DNA of 64,000 bases from assembly GCF_032191835.1 (NCBI RefSeq), contig NC_083237.1, positions 40,176,001 to 40,240,000 on the forward strand. The letters run 5' to 3'. Shown here piece by piece: positions 4,945 to 64,000 of the stretch. Position 1 is the stretch's first letter, and every line of letters starts with the position of its first letter. Under the pieces are notes generated by a model that was not told where the DNA came from, made no database searches, and worked only from the letters and a program-made list of their open reading frames with translations. The position numbers and the translations under genes are program-made. The DNA comes from Heteronotia binoei (lineage: Eukaryota).

Positions 4945-5607
4945 ACCATAATCACCTCTGGAATATCTTGTCTGGCATTAAAAATGCTCCTCTTCATCCA
5001 TTTCTTGTATATACTGGCAGAAGGATGTCCACTTCCTTTTTCATGATTTCAAAGGGGAATTCAAATACAAACCTTTCATTAGGTAGTATGTGATTCAACA
5101 CTTTCCACTGTTTCATATGCAACTCCATATGTAGCATTCCCTGACTTTACAATTCAGAGAGTCTTTCTCAATAATTCCTATGGGTCTTTTAACCTAATAT
5201 TTTTTAATTCTAACATGAAATTTAAAATTCATAATGTGCCACTAAATATTTTCTTGATGACCAGTCAGTGCTGACTTGATTTAATTCTGCTTTGGTAAAG
5301 GTATTTCAGCAGCAATTGATCATTACACAATTCCATTATTATTATTATGGAAAGCCAGATATCTAGGGGCTTGAGAATGCAAAACCTTTTTTGTACTTCA
5401 GTGTGTACTGCCTTATGAGTGTGTCAAATGAAAATGTAACTGGAGCACTAAAACAAGAAAGCATGTTTTATGTTTATATGCTACTCAAGTGTTAAACAGC
5501 TAAAAGATTCACAGTTATCCCTGTAACAGTTTATTTTTTCAAAGACTTCCATTCTATTAGGAAAGGAGTAACTGGGCTTTGCTGTTGTTGTTTTTATTTC
5601 CGCAGCA

Positions 5608-6549
5608 ATGGAGAACCGAACTGAAGTGCATGAGTTCATTCTTCTGGGTTTTACATATGAACACAGTGGGCGGTACACTTTCTTTGTGATGTTTCTTCTG
5701 CTCTACTTGGCCAGTTTGCTGGGAAATGGAGCCATTTTGGCTGTAGCTATAGCTGAGCCTCGACTCCATACCCCCATGTATTTTTTTCTGGGCAATCTCT
5801 CCTGCCTGGACATGTGCTACTCCACTGTTACTGTGCCCAAAATGCTGAGTGGCTTCTTAACAGAACACCAAGCAATTTCTTTTATTGAATGTCTGGTTCA
5901 ATTGCATTTTTTTTACTTCCTGGGCAGTGGTGAAGGCATCCTTCTGGGGGTTATGGCCTTTGATCGCTACATGGCTATCTGCAACCCTCTGCGCTACACA
6001 GTCATCATGAATAAATTGACTTGCCTTCTGTTAGCTGGGGCCACCTGGGTTGCTGGCTTTTTTCATGCCATGATGCATACTGTGGCAACCTCTCAGTTAT
6101 GGTTCTGTGGCCCCAATCATGTTCAGCACTTCCTCTGTGATGTCAAACCTCTGTTAAAATTGGCCTGCAGTAACACCACCCTCAACCTCAGCCTCCTTAA
6201 TATTGTTACTGGCTGCATTGCTATGAGTGGCTTCTTCCTCACTTTTCTCTCCTACTTGTACATCATATCCTTCCTCTTCTTCAAAGTCCAGTCCTGGAAG
6301 AGTCGCTGGAAAGCCTTCTCTACTTGTGCCTCCCACCTGACTGTCGTGGCTCTCTTGTATGTTCCAGTTCTTTCCAACTACTTGCTTGCATCTGTTGGGG
6401 AGTCTGCTAAAAGAGAGATGATCATCACTATATTGTACAGTGCAGTCACTCCAGTTTTGAACCCTCTGATCTATACACTGAGAAATCAAGAGATGAAATC
6501 TGCTCTGAAAAAAATCTTCAGTCAGGAACGTTTGTTTGGAAGGATATGA
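5608..6549 (+). CDS. Olfactory receptor, OR12D-like, intact (313 aa)
   Basis: Motifs [40 protein letters not shown] and PVLNPLIYTLRN. LHFF…LGS and CDVKPLLKLAC match the OR12D family as recalled. Splice acceptor ttttatttccgcag|caATG. Confidence 0.95.
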   Translation: MENRTEVHEFILLGFTYEHSGRYTFFVMFLLLYLASLLGNGAILAVAIAEPRLHTPMYFFLGNLSCLDMCYSTVTVPKMLSGFLTEHQAISFIECLVQLHFFYFLGSGEGILLGVMAFDRYMAICNPLRYTVIMNKLTCLLLAGATWVAGFFHAMMHTVATSQLWFCGPNHVQHFLCDVKPLLKLACSNTTLNLSLLNIVTGCIAMSGFFLTFLSYLYIISFLFFKVQSWKSRWKAFSTCASHLTVVALLYVPVLSNYLLASVGESAKREMIITILYSAVTPVLNPLIYTLRNQEMKSALKKIFSQERLFGRI

Positions 6550-12900: not shown

Positions 12901-13968
12901 TGAGGCAGCTTATACTGGCCATCTGGACCTATCCTGAGATTCTTCCTAAATCATTCCTATGGGCTTTTACCTAATATTTTAACATTCTAACATGAAATTT
13001 AAAATTCATAATGTGCCACTAAATATTTTCTTGATGACCAGTCAGTGCTGACTTGATTTAACTCTGCTTTGGTGAAGTTATTCCCACAACAATTGATTAT
13101 TATACGATTCCATTATTATTATTGGAAACAAGCTATCTAGAGGATTGTCAAACTTTTTTGTATTTCAACACCTGAGTACATACTGCATTATGAATGTGCC
13201 AGATGTAAATATGTAACTGGAGCACTAAAACAAGAAAGCATGTTTTATGTTTATATGCTACTCAAGTGTTAAGTAACTGACTCAAAGAGTCATAACTAAC
13301 CCTGTAACAGTTTATTTTTTTTCAAAGACTTCCATTCTATTAGGAAAGAAGTAACTGGGCTTTGCTGTTGTTGTTTTTATTTCCACAGCAATGGAGAACC
13401 GAACTGAAGTGCATGAATTCATTCTCCTGGGTCTTACACATGAACACAGAGAGCAGTACACTTTCTTTGTGATGTTTCTTCTTCTCTACCGGGCCAGTTT
13501 GCTGGGGAATGGAGCCATTGCCCCCCCAGGCAGAATAACGAGACAAACACCGGATTGGATTAAAGGGCCACTTTATTAAACTTAACGGCAAGGGCAAAAC
13601 ATGGGGACAGATCAAGCCAGGGGTCAACCCGACCACCTCCTTGACCTGAAACTGGGCGAGCCCCCAGAGCCCCGGGTATGAGCCAACCCAACGGCTCAGA
13701 CCCAGCCGGCGCGGCAACATGATCACCGCTCACCTGAGCTCCGCCATCCCCACAGCCGTGCAGCCTGGGATGCGGACACTCTCCGCGTGCCGGGATCCCA
13801 TAGACTCCCTGGAGCCAACCTTGGGCCGTACAGCTTAACGGTCCCCCAGGGAAGCCATGCACCAAAATGGCGCGATGCTACGGGAGCTCACCAATCCCCA
13901 AAACATAATCCCAACCACAAACTGCCACGGACAGCGCCAAGCCTCTGCTTAGGCCGCTGTACCCCAAA

Positions 13969-14545
13969 CTATAACACCCGAACAAGCCCTTGCCGTAAGT
14001 CGGCTAAAAATAGCTCATTGCCCTTCTCTGACAGATGGACCCCATCCTCTCTGTACAATTCCGGCATATTAGATTGAATAAAAGGATGGGGCATGTAACC
14101 TCCGAGACCACCACAGAGGGATTTGTGCAAAGCCCTGTTGGCTTTTATCCTGGCGCGCTCCAAACCAGCTGGGTCCCAACTGGTCCGCCAAACGCGGCGC
14201 GGCAGCATGGCCGACCATATGATAAGGACACCAGGCCACCTATTGCCGATCAAAGCCAGATCCGACTGAGCCTGAATCGAAAGGGCCTTCCCCTTCATCA
14301 GACCCAAGTCGTTCTCCCCCAAATGTATTACCAAAATCTGTGGAGGAGGGCCACCCCGGTCCCTGAACAAAAGGGGGAGGAGTCCAGGCCACCTCATACC
14401 ACGGCGGCCCTGCCATGTAATTACAGCTCTGTCGCTCAGGCCCAGCTGCAAACCGGTCGGCGTCCGTCGGGCCTGATGTGCCGCCCAAACACAATGCTGT
14501 GGCCGCATATAAGGATCCGTTTCCTCTCGTCGCCAGCCACAGCAC
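13969..14545 (-). CDS. SGNH/GDSL-like hydrolase (esterase) exon of the YR element; one 1-bp deletion
   Basis: Blocks RILICGHS, LVIHLGENDLG and DGVHLSEKGN. It is preceded by a polypyrimidine tract and AG at 14561-14546. Confidence 0.85.
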
Positions 14546-14638
14546 CTAGAAGAAAAAACTATTAGAACTGCTGAACTAGGGATGAATAACATAACCAGCC
14601 TCAAACATTCCCCGTGGTATCGGTGTAGGAAGACCATC

Positions 14639-15539
14639 CTAAGACCGCAAAGGCCGAATATAAGCACGGTAAGCCCCAGACTTCCAACGCCCCAGTTGAC
14701 GAATGTCCTCTCCTCCATAGCCCAACGCTGCGGCTGTGGAAGCTGCACCGATTCTGAAGGAATGGGTACCAAATTTGCGACCCCCGAGGCCCAAATGTTT
14801 CAAAGCTCTACTCGTGATGGCTCAAAATTGGTACTTCGTCAAAGGTGCCTCATTGACATGGCGGAAAAAGGGGCCGTCCAATGATCCACGCCATTCAATG
14901 TAATGCTTGATTGCAGCCACTGGGCATAACTTACGCTCCGCACAAGTTCCGACCGTCATTGTGCAGCCGTGTCTTTGAACGGCGGACCCGGAACGCCACC
15001 CGGTCGCTGAATAAACTAACATCTTTAAACTGCAGGCCCCTTGCAGAAACATCATTGCGGGAGAGTGTTACCAGCTCCGGTACTCTAAAGGCCCCAAAAA
15101 AGGCCGTCAATGCGGCACCGTGGAAGAGTGCCTCCTCATAAGCTGACCCACAAACAAGAGCCCAAGAGGCATGAAGCCCCCTGAGGATAGATGGCGAGAT
15201 AGGTTGCCTACCATCAACCCGGGGTCCAGATTCACGGGACCAACCTTCCAGCATTTTTTGTATGCAAAAATCCTTAGTCGCATCGCCATGCCCTCTGGCG
15301 TTGCTCGTAAAAGCCAGTGCCGCCAGCTGGCCCCGAATAGATTTCACTGAAAGACCCCTTTGCTTCTGATGCACACAAAACTGTAACAACTGCTCAACAG
15401 GAATGGGCCACACCTCAGGTAATCCTGCCCCCTTTCTGAAAACCAAAAACTGGCTAGCCGCCCGGTCATACGACCTTTGAGTGCTGGGCGCTATGGCAAG
15501 ATGGATTGCCCGGCTCACTTCTTCCCTCCAATCTGCCAT
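14639..15539 (-). pseudogene. Tyrosine recombinase of the YR element (frameshift plus nonsense codon)
   Basis: MADWREEV…AFFGAFRVPEL…RRSKT, then in another frame LCPVAA…F*AITSRAL…GTHSFRIGAAS…GRWKSGAYRAYIR, giving the R…HxxR…W…Y catalytic set. Confidence 0.9.
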
Positions 15540-15582
15540 AATTCCGCCGGGATGCGCTCGGGCAACAGGTCGGCCTCCGGGG

Positions 15583-17312
15583 CTAATTGACGGAAACGGT
15601 CCATCTGTTGGCGAGACAGAGCATCCGCCACCCATTACAAGTGCCAGGAATGTGCTTAGCCAAAAACAAGATATTCAGTTTTAAACAGCATAACGTAAAC
15701 GCCCCAACAAGCCGCATGTCCGTGGGGGACTTGGATGTCAAACTGTTAACAACATGAACAACAGCCATGTTGTCGCACCAGAAGTGCACTGAGCAATTGG
15801 CCAAAGCCTCACCCCAAAGAAAAATGGCAATGACAATCGGAAAGAATTCAAGGAACGTAAAGTTCTGGCACAACTCGGAACCCAACCAATCCTGCGGCCA
15901 TCGCTCAGCACACCAGTGCCCCCGGAAATAGACCCCGAAACCAATGGAACCGGTGGCATCTGAAACTATCTGTAACTCGGCCTCAAGCTGCATATCCGCA
16001 CCCCAGAAAGAAATGCCGTTGAAGTCCTTTAAGAATGTTTCCCAGACCGCAAGGTCCTCTTGCATCTCCCTCGTAACACGGGTAAAATGATGCGGCAAGC
16101 GCAGGTTGGCCATTCCGTCGCAGAATTGCCTCAAAAAGGCCCTGCCCAGAGCCACTACCTTACAAGTGAAGTTCAAATGACCCACCAGCTGCTGTAGCTC
16201 CAATAAGGTGACCTTACGCTTAACCAACACCGCTCGGACCTGTGTTAACAGGCTAACTGGCTTGTCCTTGGGCAGCCTTGAAAACTGACGCACCGTATCC
16301 AACTCGATGCCCAAAAAGGTAAGAACCGTAGTTGGGCCCTCGGTTTTTTCCGCAGCCAACGGTACTCCCAATTCCTCAGTTAAATCCACGAAGGCCGTTA
16401 ACAACGAAAGGCACTGCCCGGAACCCGCGGGGCCCACGAAAAGGAAATCATCTAAATACTGAGCCGTGTCCTGTATCCCCATTCTAAAATGCAATGCCCA
16501 TTCCAAAAAAGTGCTAAAACGCTCAAACGCGGCGTAGGAAACTGAACACCCCATAGGCAGTGCCCTATCAACATAATAACTCCCTTCGAAAGCACAACCT
16601 AACAATTCAAAGTCCCCGGGGTGAACTGGGAGAAGGCGAAAAGCCGATTTTATATCGCACTTCGCCAACTCAGCACCCCTCCCACACCGGCGAACTATCT
16701 GTACTGGTCAAAAGAAGTAAATTTCACCGAACAAAGCTCAGCCGGGATTGCATCATTCACAGATCGACCCCTGGGATAAGAAAGATGGTGAATTAACCGA
16801 TATTCACCTGCTGCCTTCTTAGGAACCACTCCCAAGGGGGATACCCTCAAGTTCGGTAGAGGGGGGGACTTAAACGGGCCTAATACCCTACCTTCAACAC
16901 ACTCTTTTCTGATCTTCTCCCTCATGATGCGCTCAAAACCCTTAACCGAACGCAAATTAGCGGAAAAGAACGGGGTCCGGGGACCTTGATATGGGATTCT
17001 GAAACCAAATAAGAACCCCTCGAACAGGTAATGCGCGTCGTTCGAATGAGGATAAACATGTAACAACTGCCTAAGAACCCTCAGCCGAATGGGGCTGGGA
17101 CCCTTTTGAAGGGTGCTGCTGAGGCCCGCCGCCTGTCCGCTTATTAGGCCACCTTTGTTTGGACCTGGTACAGGCAGTGAAGGCGTGAGGGCCTCCACAA
17201 ATCGGGAACTCGTGCTTATACTTACAGGCCTTCCTGGCGCACGAGCCTTGGGAGGTGAACTCCCAGCAAAGCAGCCGTGGCTGAACCGACTACCCCGCGG
17301 CTGCGCGGGCAC
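15583..17312 (-). pseudogene. DIRS/Ngaro-type reverse transcriptase and RNase H (frameshifted)
   Basis: SPLGVVPKK…YRLIHHLSYP, KCDIKSAFRLLP, LPMGCS, YLDDFL, FLGIELD, SDATGSIGFG, LEFFPI and FWCDNMAVV. There are frame breaks near 16700 and 15625. Confidence 0.9.
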
Positions 17313-18580
17313 CAGTAAAATTTGTTGTCAATGTCTTTTGAATCAAATGGCCGCTATCAGATCGCTTCCCTGCATTTGGTTTTGCGGGCGCCATAAGCTG
17401 CAGCCAAAGCTGCTGGTTAATCTGATTCCACTGGAGACAAGGATTAACTGCCACCCGCATACGGAACTGTTTGTCGTACTGGAGCCACGCCCCACCAGCA
17501 AAGTCATTATATGCCCTGTATATAATGTCGCAGTACTGGAACAACGGTGCTGCTCTCCATGGTTGGGCCCTAGCGATAACGCCCGCATAAATGAGGAAAC
17601 CGGGCAGCCAATTTGCCCATGTTCTATCTACTTTCCAACGCTTGAGCTTCTCTGTCTTTTTCGTCAAGCTCGTCCTTTGATTTCTTTTCCAATTGCCTAT
17701 ACAGAAGGCTAAATACATCTACATATTCACCTTTAAGGATTTTCTCCCTAGTCGCGGCGGTAAGATGGTCGCCTAAGGGCATGGCAGGGTCCCCAAAAGG
17801 CAAAGCATGAAATTCCAATGCACTGTAAGGAACTGGTGGATGGGATGGGAACCCCCAGAAACCCACCTGCTGCGCAGCCCACGGTAAAGACGTGGACGGG
17901 GACTGCTGCCATCCCCAAGGTAACACACCCGTCGCCAGCCCCTGACCACCGGCCCCGAGGCCGGCTCCATAACCACTGCTCCCTGGGGCTAGACCCCAAG
18001 GTACCCAAGAACTTTCAGAAACTGGAGTCGAAGATGAAGTACCAGCCTGTGACAGGAAACCCGGGGCTGCCTGCTGCCCCATAAGTGGCACCGCCCCCAA
18101 ATAGTTGGCCCCTACCGCCTGGGTTCCTCCCACCGGCCTGGAACCCGATGCTACATTGGGCCCCCAAGGGCCCCATGGCCATGCCACTCCCTGCTGCGGT
18201 GCAGGTAACTTACCTTCGCTCACCGGCGGCACCACCACCACAGCCTCGGGTTCCTCCCTCTGTTCGTCCTCTAGCGGCACTCCCTCGTTCGTCACACCAC
18301 TGTTTCCTTCTGCTCCCTGCAACACAGAAAGCCGGGCCAGCACCTCCTTCTGAAAGGAGATGGTGGCTGCCCTACCTGACCCTAAAAGATTTGTGACCCT
18401 CCTAGAAGGGCCAGCCACTCCCCTTGCCTCCTCCAAGGCTGCCAATTGGTCCATAATGGCTTGCCTGGTTTGGGCCTCCTCCCCTTCCTCAGGCGGGGGA
18501 AGTTCTGGGGGCGGTGTTTTTGAAGGTCGCTTTGCGGGCTGCTTGCCCTTTTTGTTGCCTTGGCCCTTCTTAGGCCCCAT
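17290..18580 (-). pseudogene. Gag-like ORF1 of the YR element (one frameshift near 17660)
   Basis: MGPKK start, PLGDHL…REKILKGEYVDVFSLL and WLQYDKQFRMR, followed by a region overlapping the pol ORF. It is homologous to 34034-34950. Confidence 0.8.
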
Positions 18581-19528
18581 TTTTTTATATACTATACGCC
18601 TTATGAGCCCCACCCTGGGCGGATCAGTAAGGTATGCATGTGGGTTTTACGGGGGGGGGGGGGGTACCACAAAGCGCCACCCTCCACTAACCTTTCAATA
18701 AGGGCACCTACACCAGCCAAGGCTAAGTCCAGGCCTCTGTCTCAACCCCCCACGACCCCTTCAACAGGCTCGCCGGCCTGCCCCCTTCTATCTGGCCTGA
18801 CAAAGGTCCTAAGGAACAGTAATGGGGTGGGTGTGGGGTTTGATGCCTAAATGAAATAAAAAATGCTCCTCAGGGACCCACACTGCCTCCCCGCCGCAAC
18901 CGCCGCGGCCTTCGTGGGGTGTCTTCCTCCACCCACAACCCTTCCCTACACGGCCCGCCAGCCTGCCCCTTTCAATCTGGCATGCCCAAGGCCTTAAGGA
19001 GCCAGGAGGGGAGGGGGGAGAGAAGGGCTGAATCAGTCGAAAGGCCCAGAAAGTCCTCGCGGCCTCACAAAACACAACCTCCAAGGCCCGTCCTCGTGGC
19101 CGGCTACACAAACCGCCTGCGCCCAAAAAGACGCCTGCAGCCGCCCCAGCTGCAAATACAGCCTCACAAAGCTTCTCTCACAATGACGCCCGGGCTGCCG
19201 ACGGCCGAAAGCCGTAATGCGTCCTCAAAGCCGATGCCGACGACGCCTCCCGGCTCAGAGGTTCCCGTGACGCTTCGCTCTCCCAGGCCCGCAGTCAGCT
19301 CCGGTAAGGTGCGACTGACCAGGCCGAGAGCAAAATCAAACTGTGTATGAGGGGGTGGGAGTGGCCTCTTAAGGCCGCTCCTTGCCCCCTCCCCCATGGG
19401 ACAAGACCATTGCCTCGCATCCACGCGGGGAGGCAATGGGCGGCCCCCAGCCTCAGCGGTCGATGGACCGCCCGGCTGGGAAGGGGCCGAATTCTGACTG
19501 TAGCTATAGCTGAGCCTCGACTCCATAC

Positions 19529-19924
19529 TGTCGGTGCGGGAGTTAGCAGAGTGAGCTTGGTGACCTGCCCGACACAGGGCTCCAGGAAAGAAATCAGCCA
19601 GACACCTGCAACTAGTGCCAAAATAGTGTATTTACAGAAATATACAATAAGTGCTCACTAGTGCAGTCCAATATCTTACTCCAACAGACAAAGTGCTCCG
19701 CCTACACACCAACTCTCAGAGAGAGCTGTGTGGTCCACACACAGTCTTCTTATAGTTCTACCAGCCAATCCTGGCTGGGCACTGTCATGCTGACTCAGCA
19801 GGTTTCTTCTCTTGGCTTCTGCCGGCCTGCTGATAAGGTCATTGTGACCTAGCATGCCTGCTAGATCACCAGCTGTCAAAGCATAGCTGTCAGACTGGGT
19901 TTACATAGATTCATTACACCAACA
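19529..19924 (-). repeat. Copia 3' LTR (396 bp)
   Basis: Direct repeat of 22855-23263. Confidence 0.95.
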
Positions 19925-19940
19925 CACCTCCTAATCTATT
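19925..19940 (-). other. Polypurine tract
   Basis: Minus strand AATAGATTAGGAGGTG abuts the 3' LTR. Confidence 0.75.
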
Positions 19941-20024
19941 GAACCCAGTACACCCAACCACTGTACACAGTTTTCATGTTCACTTGCAGTCAGTAACATA
20001 CATTTCATATTTACACATTTGTAA

Positions 20025-22676
20025 TTACCAGTCCAGGCACTCGTCTTGGTGATAAAAAATATCATCACTGTCCTGGTCAGCCAGCTCCTTCTGGCGTTTG
20101 GCTTCAGCCTCCCTGTTCTTTGCCTCGCACTCTGCCACCCAGGCCTTCCACTTCTTAGCCTTTTCTTTCAGCATTCCTCCAAACCCAGGTGGGTCTGGTT
20201 TAACTGTCAGAGTGACATAGGGCACCTTATACCTGGCAGGAGGTTTGCCTTTTGTGGTTCTAGCAGACACCCATGGCTCTGTGCTAGGACCGGCCTTATC
20301 TTCTTCAGGCTGATCTGTTCCCACCTCCTGGGCTGGTTGTTCTGCCCCTGTGGTTAGAGGTTGCACCTCCTGACTTTCACACTCCACCTCCTGACCCTCT
20401 ATCTCAGGCTCTGAACCACCTTGGAGCTCACGTTTCTCTGAGCCTCTGCTTGCCAGTTCCCGGTCGGGAGAATGTTCCTGCTTAATTACCTCTGGCAGGA
20501 CTCCAGCACCGTTATCAGTTGCTGGCAGCAGTACAAATTGTTTCTTCGGGGAGTGTAATCTTGCCCAGCTGGACTCCTCATTAAACTGGGCAGTTTCACT
20601 AAGGATTATTTTCTTTCTCTTATCGCAGAAGCGATAACACCTGGCTTCTGGCTTGTAGCCCAGAAAAGTCAGGCTCTCTGCCCGGACATCCCCCTCCCTG
20701 CTGCTCTCGGAGGGGACGCCAACCCGAGCCTGTGTCCCAAAGACTCTCAAAAATTTTAAATCTGGACACTTGTTATACAGCTTCCTATAGGGCAAATCAT
20801 TTACAGGTTTACACCAAACACGATTATGCACAAACACAGCACAGTACATAGCCTCAGCCCAATTGCAAATTGGCAACCTTGCATCTTCAAGCATGCTGTA
20901 CATTATCGTTTGCAACACAGCTCCTGTGCGCTCTGCTAGCCCATATTCTTTCCCATTTTCTTGGGGCGTGGCTGGGTTCACTAAACGGTGGGCAATGCCC
21001 TTGTTCTCCAGCCAACATTTCAATTCATTTGATAAGAATTCCCCCCCTCTGTCGGTCTGAATAGCCAGGAGGTTTACACCTAATTGCCTCTCAACTGCTT
21101 TGACCCATTTTATGAATGTCTTGTACACTGCAGATTTCTGTACCATAGCAAAGACCCAAGAGTACCTCGTGTGGTCGTCTGTGGCCACTAAGCAGTACCT
21201 CCTCCCCGACAGACTTTTTGGCAATGGGCCAATCACGTCTAAGTGAACTAGCTCTAGGGCACGCTCACTTTCTCTCGTGCTCTCCTTAGAAACAGCGCAT
21301 GCCCTGCTTTTGGTCTTCTTGCAGACCTGACAATTCAAGTAACATTTGCAAGGTTTCACTTTTAGACTAGGCACCAACTCCAGGGTTTTTTTCAACGCTC
21401 TAAACCCGCAGTGCCCCAGTCTCTGGTGAAGTAAATGTATACACTTATTGTGCACAGGCTCATTTGACACCTGTGCCACCTGGGCACATTCATTCTGGAC
21501 CACATATATTTTACCTTCTCTTTTTCCAGTTACAAGCAACTTTCCCCCACCTCCCAGGATTTTACAGCAGGTCCTTTCAAACCTCACCCGGTATCCCTGG
21601 TCAATTAGCGTGCTAACACTTAGCAGGTTTGACTGTAGTGAGGGTACACATAACACATTTTGCAAAGTGCAATTTAACACAGGAAATTTCACATTGCCTG
21701 AGCAAGTAGCATTGGCAGTGGTCCCGTTAGCTAATCTAACATGCCTGTGTTCAGGAATGTCAATATTGTTCAACAACTCCTTCTTGCAGCAGAGATGGCT
21801 CGTTGCCCCAGAGTCTAAAATCCAGGCAGACCCTGTGCTCTCTACTGCAGACGTGACCAGCCGGGCTCCTTCCTCACACGGGCTGGTGGTCCTCCGCTCT
21901 CGCTGCCTCCATCCACACCGCTTCCCCCTCTCTGGGCAAGCTCGAAGCAGGTGCTGTGACGACCCACAGCCATAGCAGCGTCGGACTGCCATTGCAGTCG
22001 GCTCCTCTTTCTCAGCCTTTGGACGTTTGCCAGCAGCAAAAGCTGGCTCACTCTTGGCTGTCTTCCCGGACGAGCCGATAGCCGCACGCTCCTGGGCCGA
22101 CACCCCCGGACAGCTCACTGCCGCAATCCTCTCTTGGAAATCAAGCAGGTGGGCACAGACGTACTCCATCGTCAGGGTCGCTACGTCCACTGTCTCCAGG
22201 GAAGTTATCAAGGGAGTAAACTCAGGCGGCAACGATGACAGTAAAATGTAAACGCGGTCATCGGGAGCTACAGTCTTGCCTCTGGCCTCAAGCTCAACGA
22301 AACAGTCCGTTAGCTTCTTGATGTGGTCTTTCACACACCCTCCAGCTGGCATAACGGTGCGAAACATTTTCCTAGTCAAGGCCATGAGGGAGCCAGCAGT
22401 GGTACTAACATGAACCCCACTGAGCGCGTCCCAGGCAGCCTTGGGAGTGTCCTTCCCATGCACATATACTAGCTGGTCATCTCCTATAGCCAGCACGATG
22501 TTTGCCAGTGCCTTATCGGCTAACACGGTCTGGGCAGGAGATAACGCTGCAGGGGGATTACTCACAAACAGCCATTGCCCTTCATGCTTGAGGTAGTGTT
22601 GCATTCTCAGGCTCCACACCGCGTAGTTGGCTGAGTTGAGCTTCTCAACGGGCACTGCAAGCTGCTGCTGAGCCAT
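20025..22676 (-). CDS. Copia Gag-protease-integrase polyprotein (883 aa), no RT
   Basis: KLNSANYAVW (copia Gag N-terminus), CCHC knuckle CYGCGSSQHLLRAC, protease WILDSGATSH, HHCC zinc motif, and integrase HLDVIGP…TDRGGEF…AER. No RT YVDD or RNase H catalytic motifs. Confidence 0.93.
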   Translation of the reverse strand: MAQQQLAVPVEKLNSANYAVWSLRMQHYLKHEGQWLFVSNPPAALSPAQTVLADKALANIVLAIGDDQLVYVHGKDTPKAAWDALSGVHVSTTAGSLMALTRKMFRTVMPAGGCVKDHIKKLTDCFVELEARGKTVAPDDRVYILLSSLPPEFTPLITSLETVDVATLTMEYVCAHLLDFQERIAAVSCPGVSAQERAAIGSSGKTAKSEPAFAAGKRPKAEKEEPTAMAVRRCYGCGSSQHLLRACPERGKRCGWRQRERRTTSPCEEGARLVTSAVESTGSAWILDSGATSHLCCKKELLNNIDIPEHRHVRLANGTTANATCSGNVKFPVLNCTLQNVLCVPSLQSNLLSVSTLIDQGYRVRFERTCCKILGGGGKLLVTGKREGKIYVVQNECAQVAQVSNEPVHNKCIHLLHQRLGHCGFRALKKTLELVPSLKVKPCKCYLNCQVCKKTKSRACAVSKESTRESERALELVHLDVIGPLPKSLSGRRYCLVATDDHTRYSWVFAMVQKSAVYKTFIKWVKAVERQLGVNLLAIQTDRGGEFLSNELKCWLENKGIAHRLVNPATPQENGKEYGLAERTGAVLQTIMYSMLEDARLPICNWAEAMYCAVFVHNRVWCKPVNDLPYRKLYNKCPDLKFLRVFGTQARVGVPSESSREGDVRAESLTFLGYKPEARCYRFCDKRKKIILSETAQFNEESSWARLHSPKKQFVLLPATDNGAGVLPEVIKQEHSPDRELASRGSEKRELQGGSEPEIEGQEVECESQEVQPLTTGAEQPAQEVGTDQPEEDKAGPSTEPWVSARTTKGKPPARYKVPYVTLTVKPDPPGFGGMLKEKAKKWKAWVAECEAKNREAEAKRQKELADQDSDDIFYHQDECLDW

Positions 22677-22840
22677 GATGCCAACTCCTCCACACAGCTG
22701 GCTGCCGTCGTCCCTCTGGCTCTCAAAATGAGATAGCTGGTGCTGCTTTGTCTTTCAACCGGCGTTCCTCGCCTCCGGCTCTTTCCAAACTCTCGGTCAG
22801 CTCAACTCTCACGGTGCTCCTCCGCGCAGCGGAACCGCCC

Positions 22841-22854
22841 TGGACCCATAACCC
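22841..22854 (-). other. Primer-binding site, copia-type (internal tRNA-iMet fragment)
   Basis: Minus strand GGGTTATGGGTCCA directly after the 5' LTR resembles the canonical copia PBS GGTTATGGGCCCAG. Confidence 0.8.
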
Positions 22855-23263
22855 TGTCGGTGCGGGAGTTAGCAGAGTGAGCTTGGTGACCTGCCCGACA
22901 CAGGGCTCCAGGAAAGAAATCAGCCAGACACCTGCAACTAGTGCCAAAATAGTGTATTTACAGATATATACAATAAGTGCTCACTAGTGCAGTCCAATAT
23001 CTTATTCCAACAGACAAAGTGCTCCGCCCTACACACCAGCTCTCAGAGAGAGACCTGTGTGGTCCACACACAGTCTTCTTATAGTTCTACCAGCCAATCC
23101 TGGCTGGGCACTGTCATGCTGACTCAGCAGGTTTCTTCTCTTGGCTTCTGCCGGCTCAAACCGGCCTGCTGATAAGGTCATTGTGACCTAGCATGCCTGC
23201 TAGATCACCAGCTGTCAAAGCATAGCTGTCAGACTGGGTTTACATAGATTCATTACACCAACA
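22855..23263 (-). repeat. Copia 5' LTR (409 bp)
   Basis: Direct repeat of 19529-19924. Confidence 0.95.
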
Positions 23264-32221: not shown

Positions 32222-33103
32222 GTAAGTATGTAAGTAAGTAAAATTTTATTTGTATCCCGCCCTCCCCCGCTGAAGCAGGCTCAGGGCGGCTAACAACATT
32301 TAAAAGTGAACAATACAATAATAAGACATTAAAATCACATTAAAACCAATCAATAATTAATTAAAACATTTCTAAATCTAATACTATTAAGTCTGGCAGT
32401 AAACATTATTGTTTGACGCTATGTCTGTCAGATGGCGTAGTGGTGGTGGATCCCTAGACCAGACCATTTTGGTGTTTCCTTTGTTGTGCACCCATAATTC
32501 AGTCATTGACAAACGCCTGTTTAAAGAGGGTAGTCTTGCAGGCCCTGCGGAACTGGTCTAAGTTCCGTAGGGCCCATACTTCCTCTGGGAGCTGATTCCA
32601 GAGGTGTGGGGCCATGGCGGAAAAGGCCCGAGTGCGGGTGTTTTGAAGTTTAACTTCTTTTGGCCCAGGGATAGTCAGTCTGTTTTTTCCTACTGACCTC
32701 AGTGCTCTCTGGGGCTCATATGGGGAGAGACGGTTCCTCAGGTAAGTCGGTCCTTGGCCATATAGGGCTTTAAAGGTAATGACCAGCACTTTGTACTGGA
32801 TCCGGTATACAATCGGCAGCCAGTGCAGTCCGCGCAGCCCCTGCCGTATATGCTCCCATCTTGGGAGACCAAGTAGCAGCCTGGCCGCCGCATTCTGCAC
32901 TAGCTGTAACTTCCGGGTCCGGCACAGAGGCAGCCCCATGTAGAGAGCGTTACAGTAGTCCAGTCTTGAGGTGACCATCGCATGGATCACCATTGCTAGG
33001 TCCTGACGCTCTAGGAAAGGAGCCAACTGCCTCGCCCGCCTCAGATGGAAAAATGCTGACTTGGCAGTGGCTGTTATCTGGGCCTCCATTGATAGTGAAG
33101 GCT
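32222..33103 (-). mobile_element. L2 LINE 3' fragment inserted in the SGNH region of the YR element
   Basis: SRLDYCNALYMGLP…HWLPIVYRIQYK, with the same 3' end family as 27811-30562. Confidence 0.88.
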
Positions 33104-34990
33104 ATCACTAATCAGCCCGAGATCATTCCCTCCCAGGTGAACAATTAATACTTGCGGAGGAGGGCCCAAACACCCATGAAATAAGAAAAGGGGGGGGACA
33201 AGCCAGGCCACTGAAGACCCCTGCTCCCCCGCCATTCAACCGTAACATATTTGCTGAGCCCCAGCTGAGAGCCAACAGCAGTTCTCCGAGCTTGACTGTG
33301 CCCGCAGATGAGAACTCTGCTCCTCCGGCCAGGAACAACAGCATCTAAAAGGAAAAACATACAAGTTATAAAACCCAAACTTAAACTACCCCCCCCCCCC
33401 CCGCTCCTAATAACAACTCCCAGTGGAGCAAAGGGGCAAACAGCACTTTTGTAAGCCTGAGATCGCCAACGGCCAAGGCTGAATGGACGAAGTAGGATAA
33501 CCCAGGGCAGCAGCCGTAGAGGCCGCACCGATTCTAAGAAATGGATACAAAACCTCACTCCAAATAACCCCGAAATTGATGTCTTGCCAGAGGGCCACCC
33601 TCAAAATGGCAGAACAACAACCTTTCGCAACCTCAGAGCTACCTTACCCCCTGATAACTTAACATCCCTACCTGAAACTAAAACTTTTAACAAATATAAA
33701 CTGTCCCCCTTATGTGGGTACCTGCGAAGGCATTCCTCAAGAGGACCCACCTTCATCGGGCTGAGGCCCTTCTCCAGATTGAGAAGGGCCCCTCCCCTAA
33801 TCCTTTCTGACCCTTGCGTGCCAGACTCTCGGGCAGTTGTTGAAAGAGTGTGGGCCGGCGCACAGGGGGCATTCGTGCTTGAACTGGCAAGCTTTAGGAC
33901 TGCACGCCCCCTGGGCCCCAAACTCCCAGCAGAGCAAGCGGTGCTGAACTGCCTGCCCTGCAGCGCTGCGGGAGGATACTGAAGCACTGGAAGGAGAAGA
34001 GGAATCCTTGGTTACAAGGTGACCACTGTCGGATCAATCCCCCAAATTGGGCCAAGCAGGTGACATCGCCTGCAGCCACAACTGCTGGTGAATCTGATCC
34101 CAAGGGAGTGAAGGGTACAAAGCGGCCCTCATCCTGAACTCCTGGTCATATTGGATCCAGGCCGGGCCGCTGAACATCGTATACCCCTTGTATATGATGT
34201 CCATATACTGAATCAACTCTGTGTCACACAGTGGCCAAAACACCCAAATGCCATCAAGAGGTCCAGCTCCTCCTTGTCCTTTTTCTCCAATTCCCTAAAT
34301 AAGATTCCCTTTTAAGATTTTCTCCCTCGTGGCAGGCAGCAGGTGATCACCCAGCGGCAAAGCCACTTCCCCAAAAGCCATAGCACTAAAGGGGACCGCC
34401 CCGTACGGAGATGGGCAACCCCAGCCTCCAGGCCAAGCCGCTGCTGACCCCTGCTGCCCCACCCCGGGCCAATTACCAAACGGACCGAACTGACCCTGTG
34501 GCCATGTCCAGTTGCTCAGCTGCTCTAAACCTAGAACAGAAGGAGCCCCAGCACCGCCTAACGGAGCACCCGCCCCACTAGGACCAGCAGACCCCCAAGT
34601 CCCCCAAGGCCATACAGGCCCAGAATGAGGCAAAGAGCCGTCCCCCGACTTACCAGAAGGTAAAGCAGGCACCAAAGCTGATCTGGTACCGCCCGCACCG
34701 GACAACAGGCCCACTCCAACATCAGAGCCAGCGGGCCCCACAGCTCCTCCAGCAGCAACCGCAGCAGATCTGCCCTCCAAAAGAGGTAAGCGGGTCATTA
34801 TATCTGCCTGCAAAGCACGCTTAGACAACCGCCCCTTCTTGGGCAACTGAGAAGGTGGAAACCCCGATGCCTGCTCAAGTGCCCGCAGCCTCTGAAAAAT
34901 GGCTGCATTAACTTCATCATCCCCTTCCTCTTCCGACGAAGGGGGAGCAGAGGCTTAGATGGAGGCTTAGGAGCCTTAGGGGCAGGCTGT

Positions 34991-35433
34991 TTCTCTTTTG
35001 ACTTTCCACTGGCTGTGACAAGCATAATTGAACTCCAAACGGAGTTCTGGCCATCACATTTAAAGGGACGGCACCCCTTTTGAATGCCTTCCTTCCATAT
35101 GAAATAATGAAGGATAGGGGCGCCTTTTTGGGGCTCATAGAATTGGACCCGCTGATCCAATCTTTTTGAAACTTGGGGGGTATTTTGGGGAGAGGCACTA
35201 GATGCTATACTGAAAATTTGGTGCCTCTACCCCAAAAAACAGCCCCCCCAGAGCCCCAGATACCCACGGATCAATTCTCCGTGATTTTCTATGGGAATAA
35301 ATCTCCCTAGGGAATAATAGAGTTCCCACCAGACATTTCCCTCCCCTCCCCCCGCTTTCTGATGACCCTGAAGCGCGGGGAGGGTCTCCAAACTGGGGGA
35401 TCCCCTGCCTCCACCTGGGGATTAGCAACCCTA
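34991..35433 (+). mobile_element. hAT MITE fragment (TAGGGTTGCCA family), left end missing
   Basis: Collinear with 47915-48330; ends in ttagcaacccta. Confidence 0.75.
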
Positions 35434-61593: not shown

Positions 61594-63139
61594 GCCCCCC
61601 CCCCCCCATGTCGGAATAAAGAGTCGGACACAAGGTATTGATACAACTAAGGGCCACTTTATTAAGTATAAGAATAAACATCAAGGGCAAACCAGAACTG
61701 CTACAAAGCCTGGTCAGGGCCAGGGGTCTCAACAGACCACTCCTCTGCCATTAGCGGGCGAGAGACCCAGCCCCGAGCTGGAGCTGTGTGGCACAGTTCC
61801 CACCAGGCCAGCCCAGCAAGGAGGCAAGTCCCAAAGGGCTCAACCACCAGACGCACATCTCAATGGAAGGCACCCTCCAGTCGAGCCTCAAAGGACGGTA
61901 TGCATTCTTCCAACCCGATTCATTATACCCAAAAGTTGATCCTGCCAGACCCCTAAACCCCCAAGAGGGATGCTTTCTGGTCCTCCCCTAGGTGCTCAAT
62001 GCCATAAGCACAGTAAAAACCTGCCACCACTAAGGCCAAGTCTCTACTTAGGCCTTAGCACCCACCGGGAGGCCCAAGGCCACTTGCAGTCCTTGCCAGA
62101 GATCTCTCAAGAAAAGCATATTACTTGTTTCAGAGAGATGCACCCCATCCCCTTTGTAGAGGCCAGAAATATCCAGATGCGGCAGATAGTGGCCCAACCC
62201 CCCTTCTAAAGCTTTCCCAATTTCCTTGTTAGCCTTATAATGGGCCCTCTCAATGCCTGCAGGGTCCCAAGCACATCGCCAAACAAGGCGGGAAATCATG
62301 ACTGACCAGATTATAATGGTAGGCCATCTCTCCTTAATGGCCCAAAAATCACCCCTGGCTTGCAAGACCAACGCCTTCCCTTTTACCAGCCTGAGATCAT
62401 TTCCTCCAAGGTGAATAATTAAAACCTGAGGAGGAGGGCCCGCATACCCCTGGAATAACAATGGCATCAGGCCAGGCCAATGAAGACCCCAGTGCCCACT
62501 CCACTCAATAGTGACCAATTGGTTGAGTCCCAGCTGAGAGCTGACTGAAGTTCTCCGAGCCTGATGTGCAGCCCAAAACACATAACTGTGTCCACAGACG
62601 AGAATTCGGATCCTCTGGCCAGGAACAACAGCATTTAAAAAGAAAAAAAAAACAGTCAAACTAGAAACAATAACTTTAAAATTCATGTACAAACCACACA
62701 CAGTTAGTGATTGAGCAGGGGGAGAACATAGGATTCATAAGCCAATGAGTGCCAATGACCCAGGCGCTAAAAGGTGGATGAAAGATAACCCAGGACAGCG
62801 GCCATAGAGGCTGCCCCAAGTCTAAAGGAGTGGGTACCAAACCGCACCCTGGACAACCCAAACTTAGCTAAAGCCCAAGAAGTCACAGCCTCAAACTGAT
62901 GTTTTTCCAACCGACTGCCATTGAGGTGACAAAATAAAAATCCATCCCTAGGACCACGTACTTCCAAATAGGCAGCCAAAGCGAAAACAGGACTCAACTC
63001 CTGCTCAGAGCATGTGCCCAGCTCCAAAACGGTTCCTTTGTGACGCTGGTCAGTCTTAGAGCATCGAACGTTGATGACCACCTTACTCTTCACTAACCAC
63101 AGGTCCTGTAGCAACAAAGCCCTACCAAAAACGTCATTT
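61594..63139 (-). mobile_element. YR retrotransposon 3' part (3' UTR, SGNH 62048-62634, YR C-terminus)
   Basis: Terminus TTT|gccccc…gtcggaataaaga, then RILVCGHSYVFWA…HLGGNDL…DGVHLSE and FGTHSFRLGAAS. Confidence 0.88.
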
Positions 63140-64000
63140 GCCCCCCAAGTCAGAATGAAGAGTCGGACACAAGGTGTTGGTATAACTATGGGCCACTTTA
63201 TTAAACATAATGATAAAAACGACAAGGGCACCCAAAAGTGCAGCCTGGTCAGGGCTAGGGGTCTCAACAGACCACTCCCCTGCCATTCACGGGCTAGAGA
63301 CCCAGCCCCCAGCAGGAGCTGTGTGACACAGCTCCCACCAGGCCAGCCCAGCAAGGAGGCATGCCCCAGAAGGCCCAGCAACCAGACACATGTCTCAGTG
63401 GAAGGCACCCTCTAGTCAAGCCTCCAGGACAGTCTGCATTTTCCCCACCCCAGGTCATCAAATCTAACGGTTGATTATGCCAGACCCCTAACTCCCCAAA
63501 AGCGGGATGCTTCACGGTCCTCCCCTATCCGCATAGTACCATAAACCCAGTAAAAACTGCCACTACTAAGGCCTTACTCTACTTAGGGCTTAGCACCCAC
63601 TGGGAGGCCCAAGTCAACCCACAGCCTTTGCCGGAGATCTCTCAAGAAAAGCAATTCTAAAGAAGTGGGTACCAAACCGCACCCCGGACAACCCCAGCTT
63701 AGCTAAAGCCCGGGACGTCACAGCCCCAAACTGATGTTTAGTTAGTGGGCTATCATTAATGTGACAAAACAAAAACCCCTCCTTGGGCCCCCAAACTGCC
63801 AAATAAGCAGCCAAAGCGGATACTGGGCACAACTCAAGCTCAGAGCAGGTGCCCAGCTCCAAACACGGTACCTTTTTGAAGCTGGTCCGTCTTAGAGCAA
63901 CAGACGTTAATGACCACCTTATCCCCTACTAACGTCAAGTCCTGTAGCAACAACGCATTACCAGAAACATCATTTCTGGAACCTGCCACTAGCTCATTGA
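63140..64000 (-). mobile_element. YR retrotransposon nested in the YR gene of the previous copy; SGNH region deleted; runs off the window
   Basis: Terminus cgtcaTTT|gccccccaagtcagaatgaaga. The 3' UTR parallels 61594-62117, then jumps at about 63653 directly to YR sequence. Confidence 0.85.

Follow-up and report, generated by a model that had tools for sequence, protein, structure and literature searches.

How tyrosine-recombinase (YR) retrotransposons express downstream reading frames that lack a start codon is an open question; for the YR of Ngaro elements the published guess is ribosomal frameshifting, called probable by Poulter and Butler (2015; quoted in PMC13003380). The question is raised by a 64,000-nucleotide stretch of the Heteronotia binoei genome (NC_083237.1, positions 40,176,001 to 40,240,000; 'the window' is this whole stretch), which holds a lizard olfactory-receptor cluster and three decayed minus-strand copies of one retrotransposon family, by its sequence features a Ngaro-type YR element. 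An earlier note on this DNA had proposed a spliced message that joins the N-terminal part of Gag (Gag-N) to an SGNH esterase. Conserved phase-matched signals, three intron-less copies and RefSeq gene models support that message, but the proposal was incomplete, as the same donor also serves an acceptor in front of the YR. Splicing as such appears very likely indeed, and it is very likely that one phase-1 donor in gag and two phase-1 acceptors are used for three messages, with YR and esterase each spliced onto Gag-N.

Splice signals in the window copies

The donor, the esterase acceptor and the exons they bound are located as follows (window coordinates; a slash marks the exon boundary).

18214..18580, minus strand: shared coding exon 1 (Gag-N), with a Lys-rich start, an acidic patch, two predicted helices and a linker
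18208..18214, minus strand: copy 1 5' splice site G/GTAAGT, phase 1 (GAAG/GTAAGT, GT at 18213-18212)
14546..14567, minus strand: copy 1 3' splice site before SGNH, TTCTAATAGTTTTTTCTTCTAG/GT (branch-like CTAAT, pyrimidine tract, TAG; AG at 14547-14546)
13969..14545, minus strand: SGNH esterase exon (GHS, GxND, DGVH), frameshifted near 14487 in copy 1
34648..34654, minus strand: copy 2 donor G/GTAAGT, phase 1 (TCTG/GTAAGT at 34653)
33345..33360, minus strand: copy 2 SGNH acceptor, phase 1 (AG at 33346-33345)
62635..62655, minus strand: copy 3 SGNH acceptor, AA (62636-62635) replacing AG, phase unchanged

The copy 1 gag ATG lies at 18580, so that exon 1 comprises 367 nt, or 122 codons plus one nucleotide, and ends in phase 1. 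The esterase frame opens 2 nt into exon 2, which makes the acceptor phase 1 as well, and TAA TAG shut this frame four codons 5' of the acceptor. The positions and phases previously assigned to the copy 1 and copy 2 sites all held when the sequence was read again, as did the change of AG to AA in the same phase in copy 3. The predicted fusion protein of about 314 residues also follows by arithmetic (122+1+191=314 aa), with exon 2 taken from 39 close copies selected by likeness to the acceptor region; in 22 of these it is open over 191 aa, while copy 1 shifts frame just past GHS. Copy 1 contains a further GTAAGT at 14934, for which a pattern search gave no scorable site in other copies. No gag motif was found within 6 kb past the window end, and copy 3 therefore offers no donor to score. 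In copy 2 and in copy 3 the acceptor is preceded by an unblocked Met in frame, a point missing from the earlier note.

Conservation of the donor and the esterase acceptor

The acceptor AG is present in 39/39 close copies, and the donor G/GTAAG in 29 of the 31 that retain this part of gag, with variable bases immediately 5' of it. A stop shuts the esterase frame within 10 codons 5' of the acceptor in 37/39, with no intervening Met. Given these stops and the lack of a Met, translation from an in-frame start farther 5' cannot extend to the catalytic Ser in the copy 1 subfamily.

Genome-wide, 3227 exact matches to the esterase motif pattern were found. We took the first 81 listed, less one duplicate locus, as 80 diverse copies, ignoring splice signals in the choice; they form 24 clusters with 56-80% identity between clusters among the matches listed. 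A phase-1 SGNH acceptor occurs in 77/80, and an AG at -38 in 23/24 clusters. YAG stands 38 nt 5' of CGHS in 73 copies and 44 nt 5' of it, in equal phase, in four more; two have AA and one a deletion. The tract 5' of the AG is T-rich, the sequence farther 5' is unconserved, and a branch-like motif is found in 63/80 by a loose pattern (CTRAY in 30/80). No conserved start codon for the esterase was found among the 80 copies; a conserved dedicated ATG had been named in the earlier note as one of the findings that would speak against splicing.

The donor was scored at a gag site anchored 10-14 codons before the WPW motif, because the top-scoring donor by a weight matrix sometimes differed from the homologous site. 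At this site a phase-1 GTA[AG]G is present in 41 of the 42 copies with anchors (14/15 clusters), against 10/756 same-size control windows in gag. The residue after the donor alternates between Lys (AAG) and Arg (AGG) with GTA[AG]G retained. Across these H. binoei copies donor and acceptor are thus conserved and matched in phase.

A second acceptor in front of the recombinase

The second acceptor, missing from the earlier note, was found via isoform models in the databases (P#### denotes such protein models from database searches, and L### loci in the H. binoei genome).

15605..15625, minus strand: second 3' splice site, ..CTGTCTCGCCAACAG/AT (AG at 15606-15605), within the RNase H motif DALSRxQ, phase 1 to the YR frame
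14639..15604, minus strand: YR exon (tyrosine recombinase), frameshifted in copy 1; homologous models match PF00589

In P0069 and P0045 a conserved Trp stands 25 residues past the YR junction, and the window has CAG/AT at equal spacing and in phase 1. In 65/65 motif-bearing copies from 20 clusters, the Ser at the acceptor is encoded by TCT (background 24%) and the Gln by CAG (background 76%); the preceding Gln is CAA in 33/33. No Met precedes the conserved Trp in 29/65 copies.

Ribosomal frameshifting or readthrough from the upstream frame could also supply YR and esterase, the splice-like motifs then being incidental. Besides the published suggestion for the Ngaro YR, the overlap of the YR frame with the end of pol would agree with this. 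However, the YR frame is shut within 10 codons 5' of the acceptor in 17/65 copies, a spacer with indels and stops separates the YR and esterase frames, and frameshifting would leave the exact intron-less copies described below unexplained. We regard this explanation as highly improbable.

Intron-less genomic copies

A first search for the Gag-N/SGNH junction gave one contiguous match in 123, and a second search with that natural copy gave three in 150. At these loci (L185, L216 and L217) Gag-N runs straight into the esterase exon, with the joint exactly at the splice sites. L257, L258, L259 and L260 join Gag-N to the YR exon, with L222 a probable fifth, as found among the 42 of 76 matches examined; of the others examined, L225 was a false flag, and the remainder proved to be ordinary acceptors, minor local indels or joins to non-element DNA. 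L217 is 96% identical to window copy 2 over 300 nt, its exon 1 stops at the same base as the copy 2 donor, and it reads LPS-D-AVVPG, the joint (LPS-D) that had been predicted for copy 2.

Ordinary DNA deletions or assembly errors might produce such copies, since internal deletions are common in the family and the junctions rest on assembled sequence. Yet in all seven copies with alignable intron-bearing kin the join lies at offset 0 from the donor, with 1-2 nt of overlap at the junction ends and on different contigs and branches, which makes this origin the least probable of the alternatives considered. A tree built on 29 rows of exon-1 ends does not unite the eight intron-less copies in one clade; they stand near different intron-bearing kin (L222 and L259 on long branches). 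The simplest reading of these sequences is that spliced RNAs were repeatedly reverse-transcribed and integrated in the germ line. The A and B pairs of the element's split repeats are both kept in L185, L216 and L260, and copies of this kind were likely mobilized by the element's own machinery; L257 and L258 keep the B pair only, and L217 and L259 have neither pair within the fetched stretch.

At five further loci (L272:3468, L273, L270:3475, L271 and L256) the element sequence begins exactly at the start of the SGNH or YR exon with non-element DNA upstream, which in four of the five ends in AG. These are possibly retroposed host-to-element splice chimeras.

Annotated gene models

Gag-N/esterase models are present in RefSeq/GenBank for Eublepharis (P0002 at three loci, P0032-P0038), Hemicordylus, Elgaria, two Anolis species, Rhineura, Pogona and Gekko. 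P0003 maps to the H. binoei genome at 100% in two pieces, residues 1-126 and 127-277, bounded by GAG/GTAGGT and TTTTAG/AT, the homologous phase-1 donor and acceptor. Three pairs of isoforms from the same gene carry one N-terminus with either YR or esterase (P0069/P0010, P0071/P0053 and P0109/P0321; in the last pair the first 305 residues are identical), and P0045 has the order Gag-N, YR start, esterase. Among the accessions of the RefSeq isoform pairs are XP_053159346.1, with its X1 partner, and XP_077156400.1. Frog models, here seen as models alone, have long basic N-termini on YR or esterase. The products are therefore already in automated annotation, unnamed. Protein matches in Logan/ENA were short single-domain calls, none with a fusion.

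Several observations weigh against the proposed splicing. The case for it is made from genomic copies and gene models, and an ab initio predictor, which may lie behind the RefSeq models, would read the same motifs. The copies are related, so the counts are not independent events, and the donor was unscorable in 38 of the 80 diverse copies, which lack the anchors. All eight intron-less copies come from the cluster 1-4 group: none was found for the copy 1 subfamily, against 46 exon-start matches, nor among four pattern matches for clusters 13-18. At the YR acceptor the pyrimidine tract is weak, and the site falls within a motif that is constrained at the protein level.

Start codons are a further point of this kind. 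An in-frame Met lies 5' of the esterase in 20/80 diverse copies and between the YR acceptor and the Trp in 36/65, so internal initiation is possible in some lineages. Each downstream frame might then have a dedicated start codon, on either a separate message or one initiated internally, and some database models do begin at internal Mets. Against this, the Mets occur at scattered places (5-57 codons), whole clusters lack them, and the copy 1 subfamily has no Met before the catalytic Ser. As a general explanation, start codons of this kind are as improbable as frameshifting.

Three other models (P0065, P0066 and P0191) fuse host genes, TSG101 in two snakes and a phosphatase-like gene, to the esterase exon of this family; host transcripts may use the SGNH acceptor.

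Proteins predicted from the proposed spliced messages

By its motifs and predicted fold, the second exon is an SGNH esterase. GHS is retained in 42, GxND in 41 and DGxH in 40 of 43 open frames. The ratio of nonsynonymous to synonymous differences points to purifying selection: the median dN/dS is 0.16 in the 29/91 pairs with a synonymous proportion (pS) below 0.7, and the median pN/pS over all 91 pairs is 0.35. The copy 1 exon matches Lipase_GDSL_2 at E=1.1e-5, short of the curated cut-off. An AlphaFold model of P0002 (mean predicted local distance difference test score, pLDDT, 58) has a disordered basic start that leads into two helices (34-54 and 72-95), which a second disordered stretch, the linker, connects to an SGNH fold, and Foldseek matched this model to platelet-activating factor acetylhydrolase (PAF-AH)/SGNH folds. 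The only PDB sequence match is the ZfL2-1 esterase 4c1b (E=3.3e-4).

The Gag-N helix motifs are found again in 26 fusion models; the linker varies and is predicted to be disordered. The linker would suit the view that splicing does occur but serves mainly for regulation or is a by-product, lowering genomic RNA or using another main donor, with Gag-N playing no role on the enzymes. A second phase-1 GTAAGT lies at 17225, in the zinc-finger part of gag, and 19/20 scorable close copies retain it; further RefSeq isoforms exist (P0045, P0047). The 17225 site is, however, not retained in other subfamilies, the Gag-N donor was used by all seven intron-less copies with alignable kin, both acceptors preserve its frame, and the helix motifs are conserved. 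A mainly regulatory or by-product role is accordingly unlikely, if less so than the other alternatives.

Model and relation to known systems

In the three-message scheme, unspliced RNA would serve as the genome and for Gag, and probably Pol; splicing to the acceptor met first in the RNA would give a Gag-N/recombinase message and splicing to the next a Gag-N/esterase message. Both fusions would be translated, and Gag-N would package the enzymes by co-assembly with Gag. We lean slightly towards the view that Gag-N, the basic two-helix piece common to both enzymes, draws them into the Gag/RNA particle, where the esterase would add membrane binding and the recombinase would be delivered with the cDNA. 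The chances are about even for a wider statement: that vertebrate, perhaps all, Ngaros follow a plan of one donor and several acceptors, with Gag-N as a packaging or targeting tag on both enzymes, an esterase product convergent on the esterase-bearing ORF1p of long interspersed nuclear elements (LINEs), and spliced RNAs mobilized as short non-autonomous elements.

For the expression of Pol there are two candidate signals. A AAAGGGNCCCAGYCC stretch is conserved at the gag/pol overlap (17085-17110 and homologues), with the gag stop following 26-29 nt downstream in most copies, and is a candidate +1/-2 frameshift signal. A weaker candidate, as a Pol acceptor, is the first AG 3' of the gag knuckle, which in 30/38 copies is a YAG of suitable phase; its position is not fixed, and clusters 5 and 23 lack it. 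Gag-N/Pol joins were found in none of five genomic pattern matches.

Env donors usually lie upstream of gag. The analogy with retroviral env drawn in the earlier note is loose, because the present donor lies inside gag and the coding piece is shared. In elements with long terminal repeats (LTRs), env/ORF3 is made from spliced subgenomic messages, and rotifer Vesta also has a GDSL ORF3 (PMC5408684); in Ty1/Copia, splicing to a short GAG RNA yields Gag alone (PMC5580714). As in these elements, alternative splicing of one genomic RNA would set the proteins made here; unlike in Copia or env, a coding Gag piece would be common to the integrating enzyme and the esterase.

The closest relatives in arrangement are the Ngaro-like Xenopus elements DIRS-53_XT and DIRS-54_XT, which likewise have split direct repeats, the order gag-RT/RH-YR-SGNH (RT/RH, reverse transcriptase/RNase H) and no methyltransferase (PMC9210276). 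They are described there with four overlapping open reading frames (ORFs) and an unproven esterase function, whereas here YR and SGNH would be alternative second exons of Gag-N. The available text of that paper mentions neither introns nor splicing; its EST/ORF supplementary tables may bear on novelty.

The resemblance to ZfL2-1 ORF1p, also proposed earlier, is real in that a helical oligomer-like segment, a basic peptide and a variable linker precede an SGNH esterase. In ZfL2-1 ORF1p, an esterase-type ORF1p of the CR1/L2/RTEX LINEs, the order is coiled coil, Arg motif and esterase, and membrane binding and dimerization are on record (PMC3905857; PDB 4c1b). In contrast, the basic stretch comes first in the present fusion, the supposed coiled coil is two predicted helices only, and the product would be spliced from a YR element rather than read from one unspliced ORF of a non-LTR element.

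We found no description of this splicing in the literature searched, which did not include the originals of Goodwin and Poulter (2004) and Poulter and Butler (2015); the available portions of PMC3783388, PMC6681497, PMC4157794, PMC7192593, PMC8547959 and PMC9341512 report none. One-donor/two-acceptor splicing in Ngaros is thus probably, though by no means surely, undescribed so far. The exact junctions given here can be tested on RNA. The real YR and esterase proteins would be redefined, since each would carry Gag-N at its front, a point of consequence for their biochemistry, and many lizard and frog genes now labelled 'uncharacterized' would be reannotated as transposon isoforms. In Cafeteria Ngaros, ORF1 has been linked to insertion-site preference (PMC8547959), for which a Gag-N fusion might offer a mechanism.

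Structure of the element and its surroundings

The remaining parts of copy 1 are as follows.

13520..19495, minus strand: Ngaro-type YR retrotransposon copy 1, A1-gag-pol-YR-SGNH-B, with several frameshifts, inside an olfactory receptor gene
19322..19493, minus strand: A1 split direct repeat, about 172 nt, recurring as A2 3' in close copies (L031, L040, L055, L058)
17071..18213, minus strand: rest of gag (WPWG region, LGDHL, zinc fingers), within both introns, frameshifted in copy 1
15515..17110, minus strand: pol (RT/RNase H), +1 frame to gag, frameshifted in copy 1; RVT_1 E=1.2e-7
13572..13577, minus strand: AATAAA, the sole one in copy 1, in the B repeat and likely the polyadenylation signal

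Self-alignment revealed split direct repeats A1 ... B1 A2 B2 in L031, L040, L046, L055, L058, L063, L067 and other close copies. Gag, RT/RNase H and YR follow each other on the same strand (RVT_1 match; YR motifs in L184; PF00589 on homologous models), and the window's own YR fragment had no Pfam match. Pol ends about 30 codons past DALSR, with no methyltransferase after RNase H. The assignment to Ngaro was made because split repeats and the lack of a methyltransferase match the definition in PMC9210276. Copy 1 keeps only A1 and one B, without A2/B2. Copies ending after a single B are common (13520; L032, L038, L045 and others) and are expected from B1/B2 recombination.

In the stretches 32230-33100 and 35014-35400 of the window, copy 2 has a LINE fragment in the esterase exon and another repeat near the gag start, and nearly all of its pol and YR is deleted; a short deletion after GHS is common to copy 2 and L217. 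In the copy 3 region (61600-64000) the YR end and the B repeat are partly duplicated in tandem (62817-63028 versus 63652-63863). Beside copy 1 lies a Copia-like element (19528-23028) with 175-nt repeats at 99% and a 909-aa ORF with gag, protease and integrase matches. The two adjoin within one olfactory receptor gene (window 13317-23100), which is a recent duplicate of the gene at 5572-6549.

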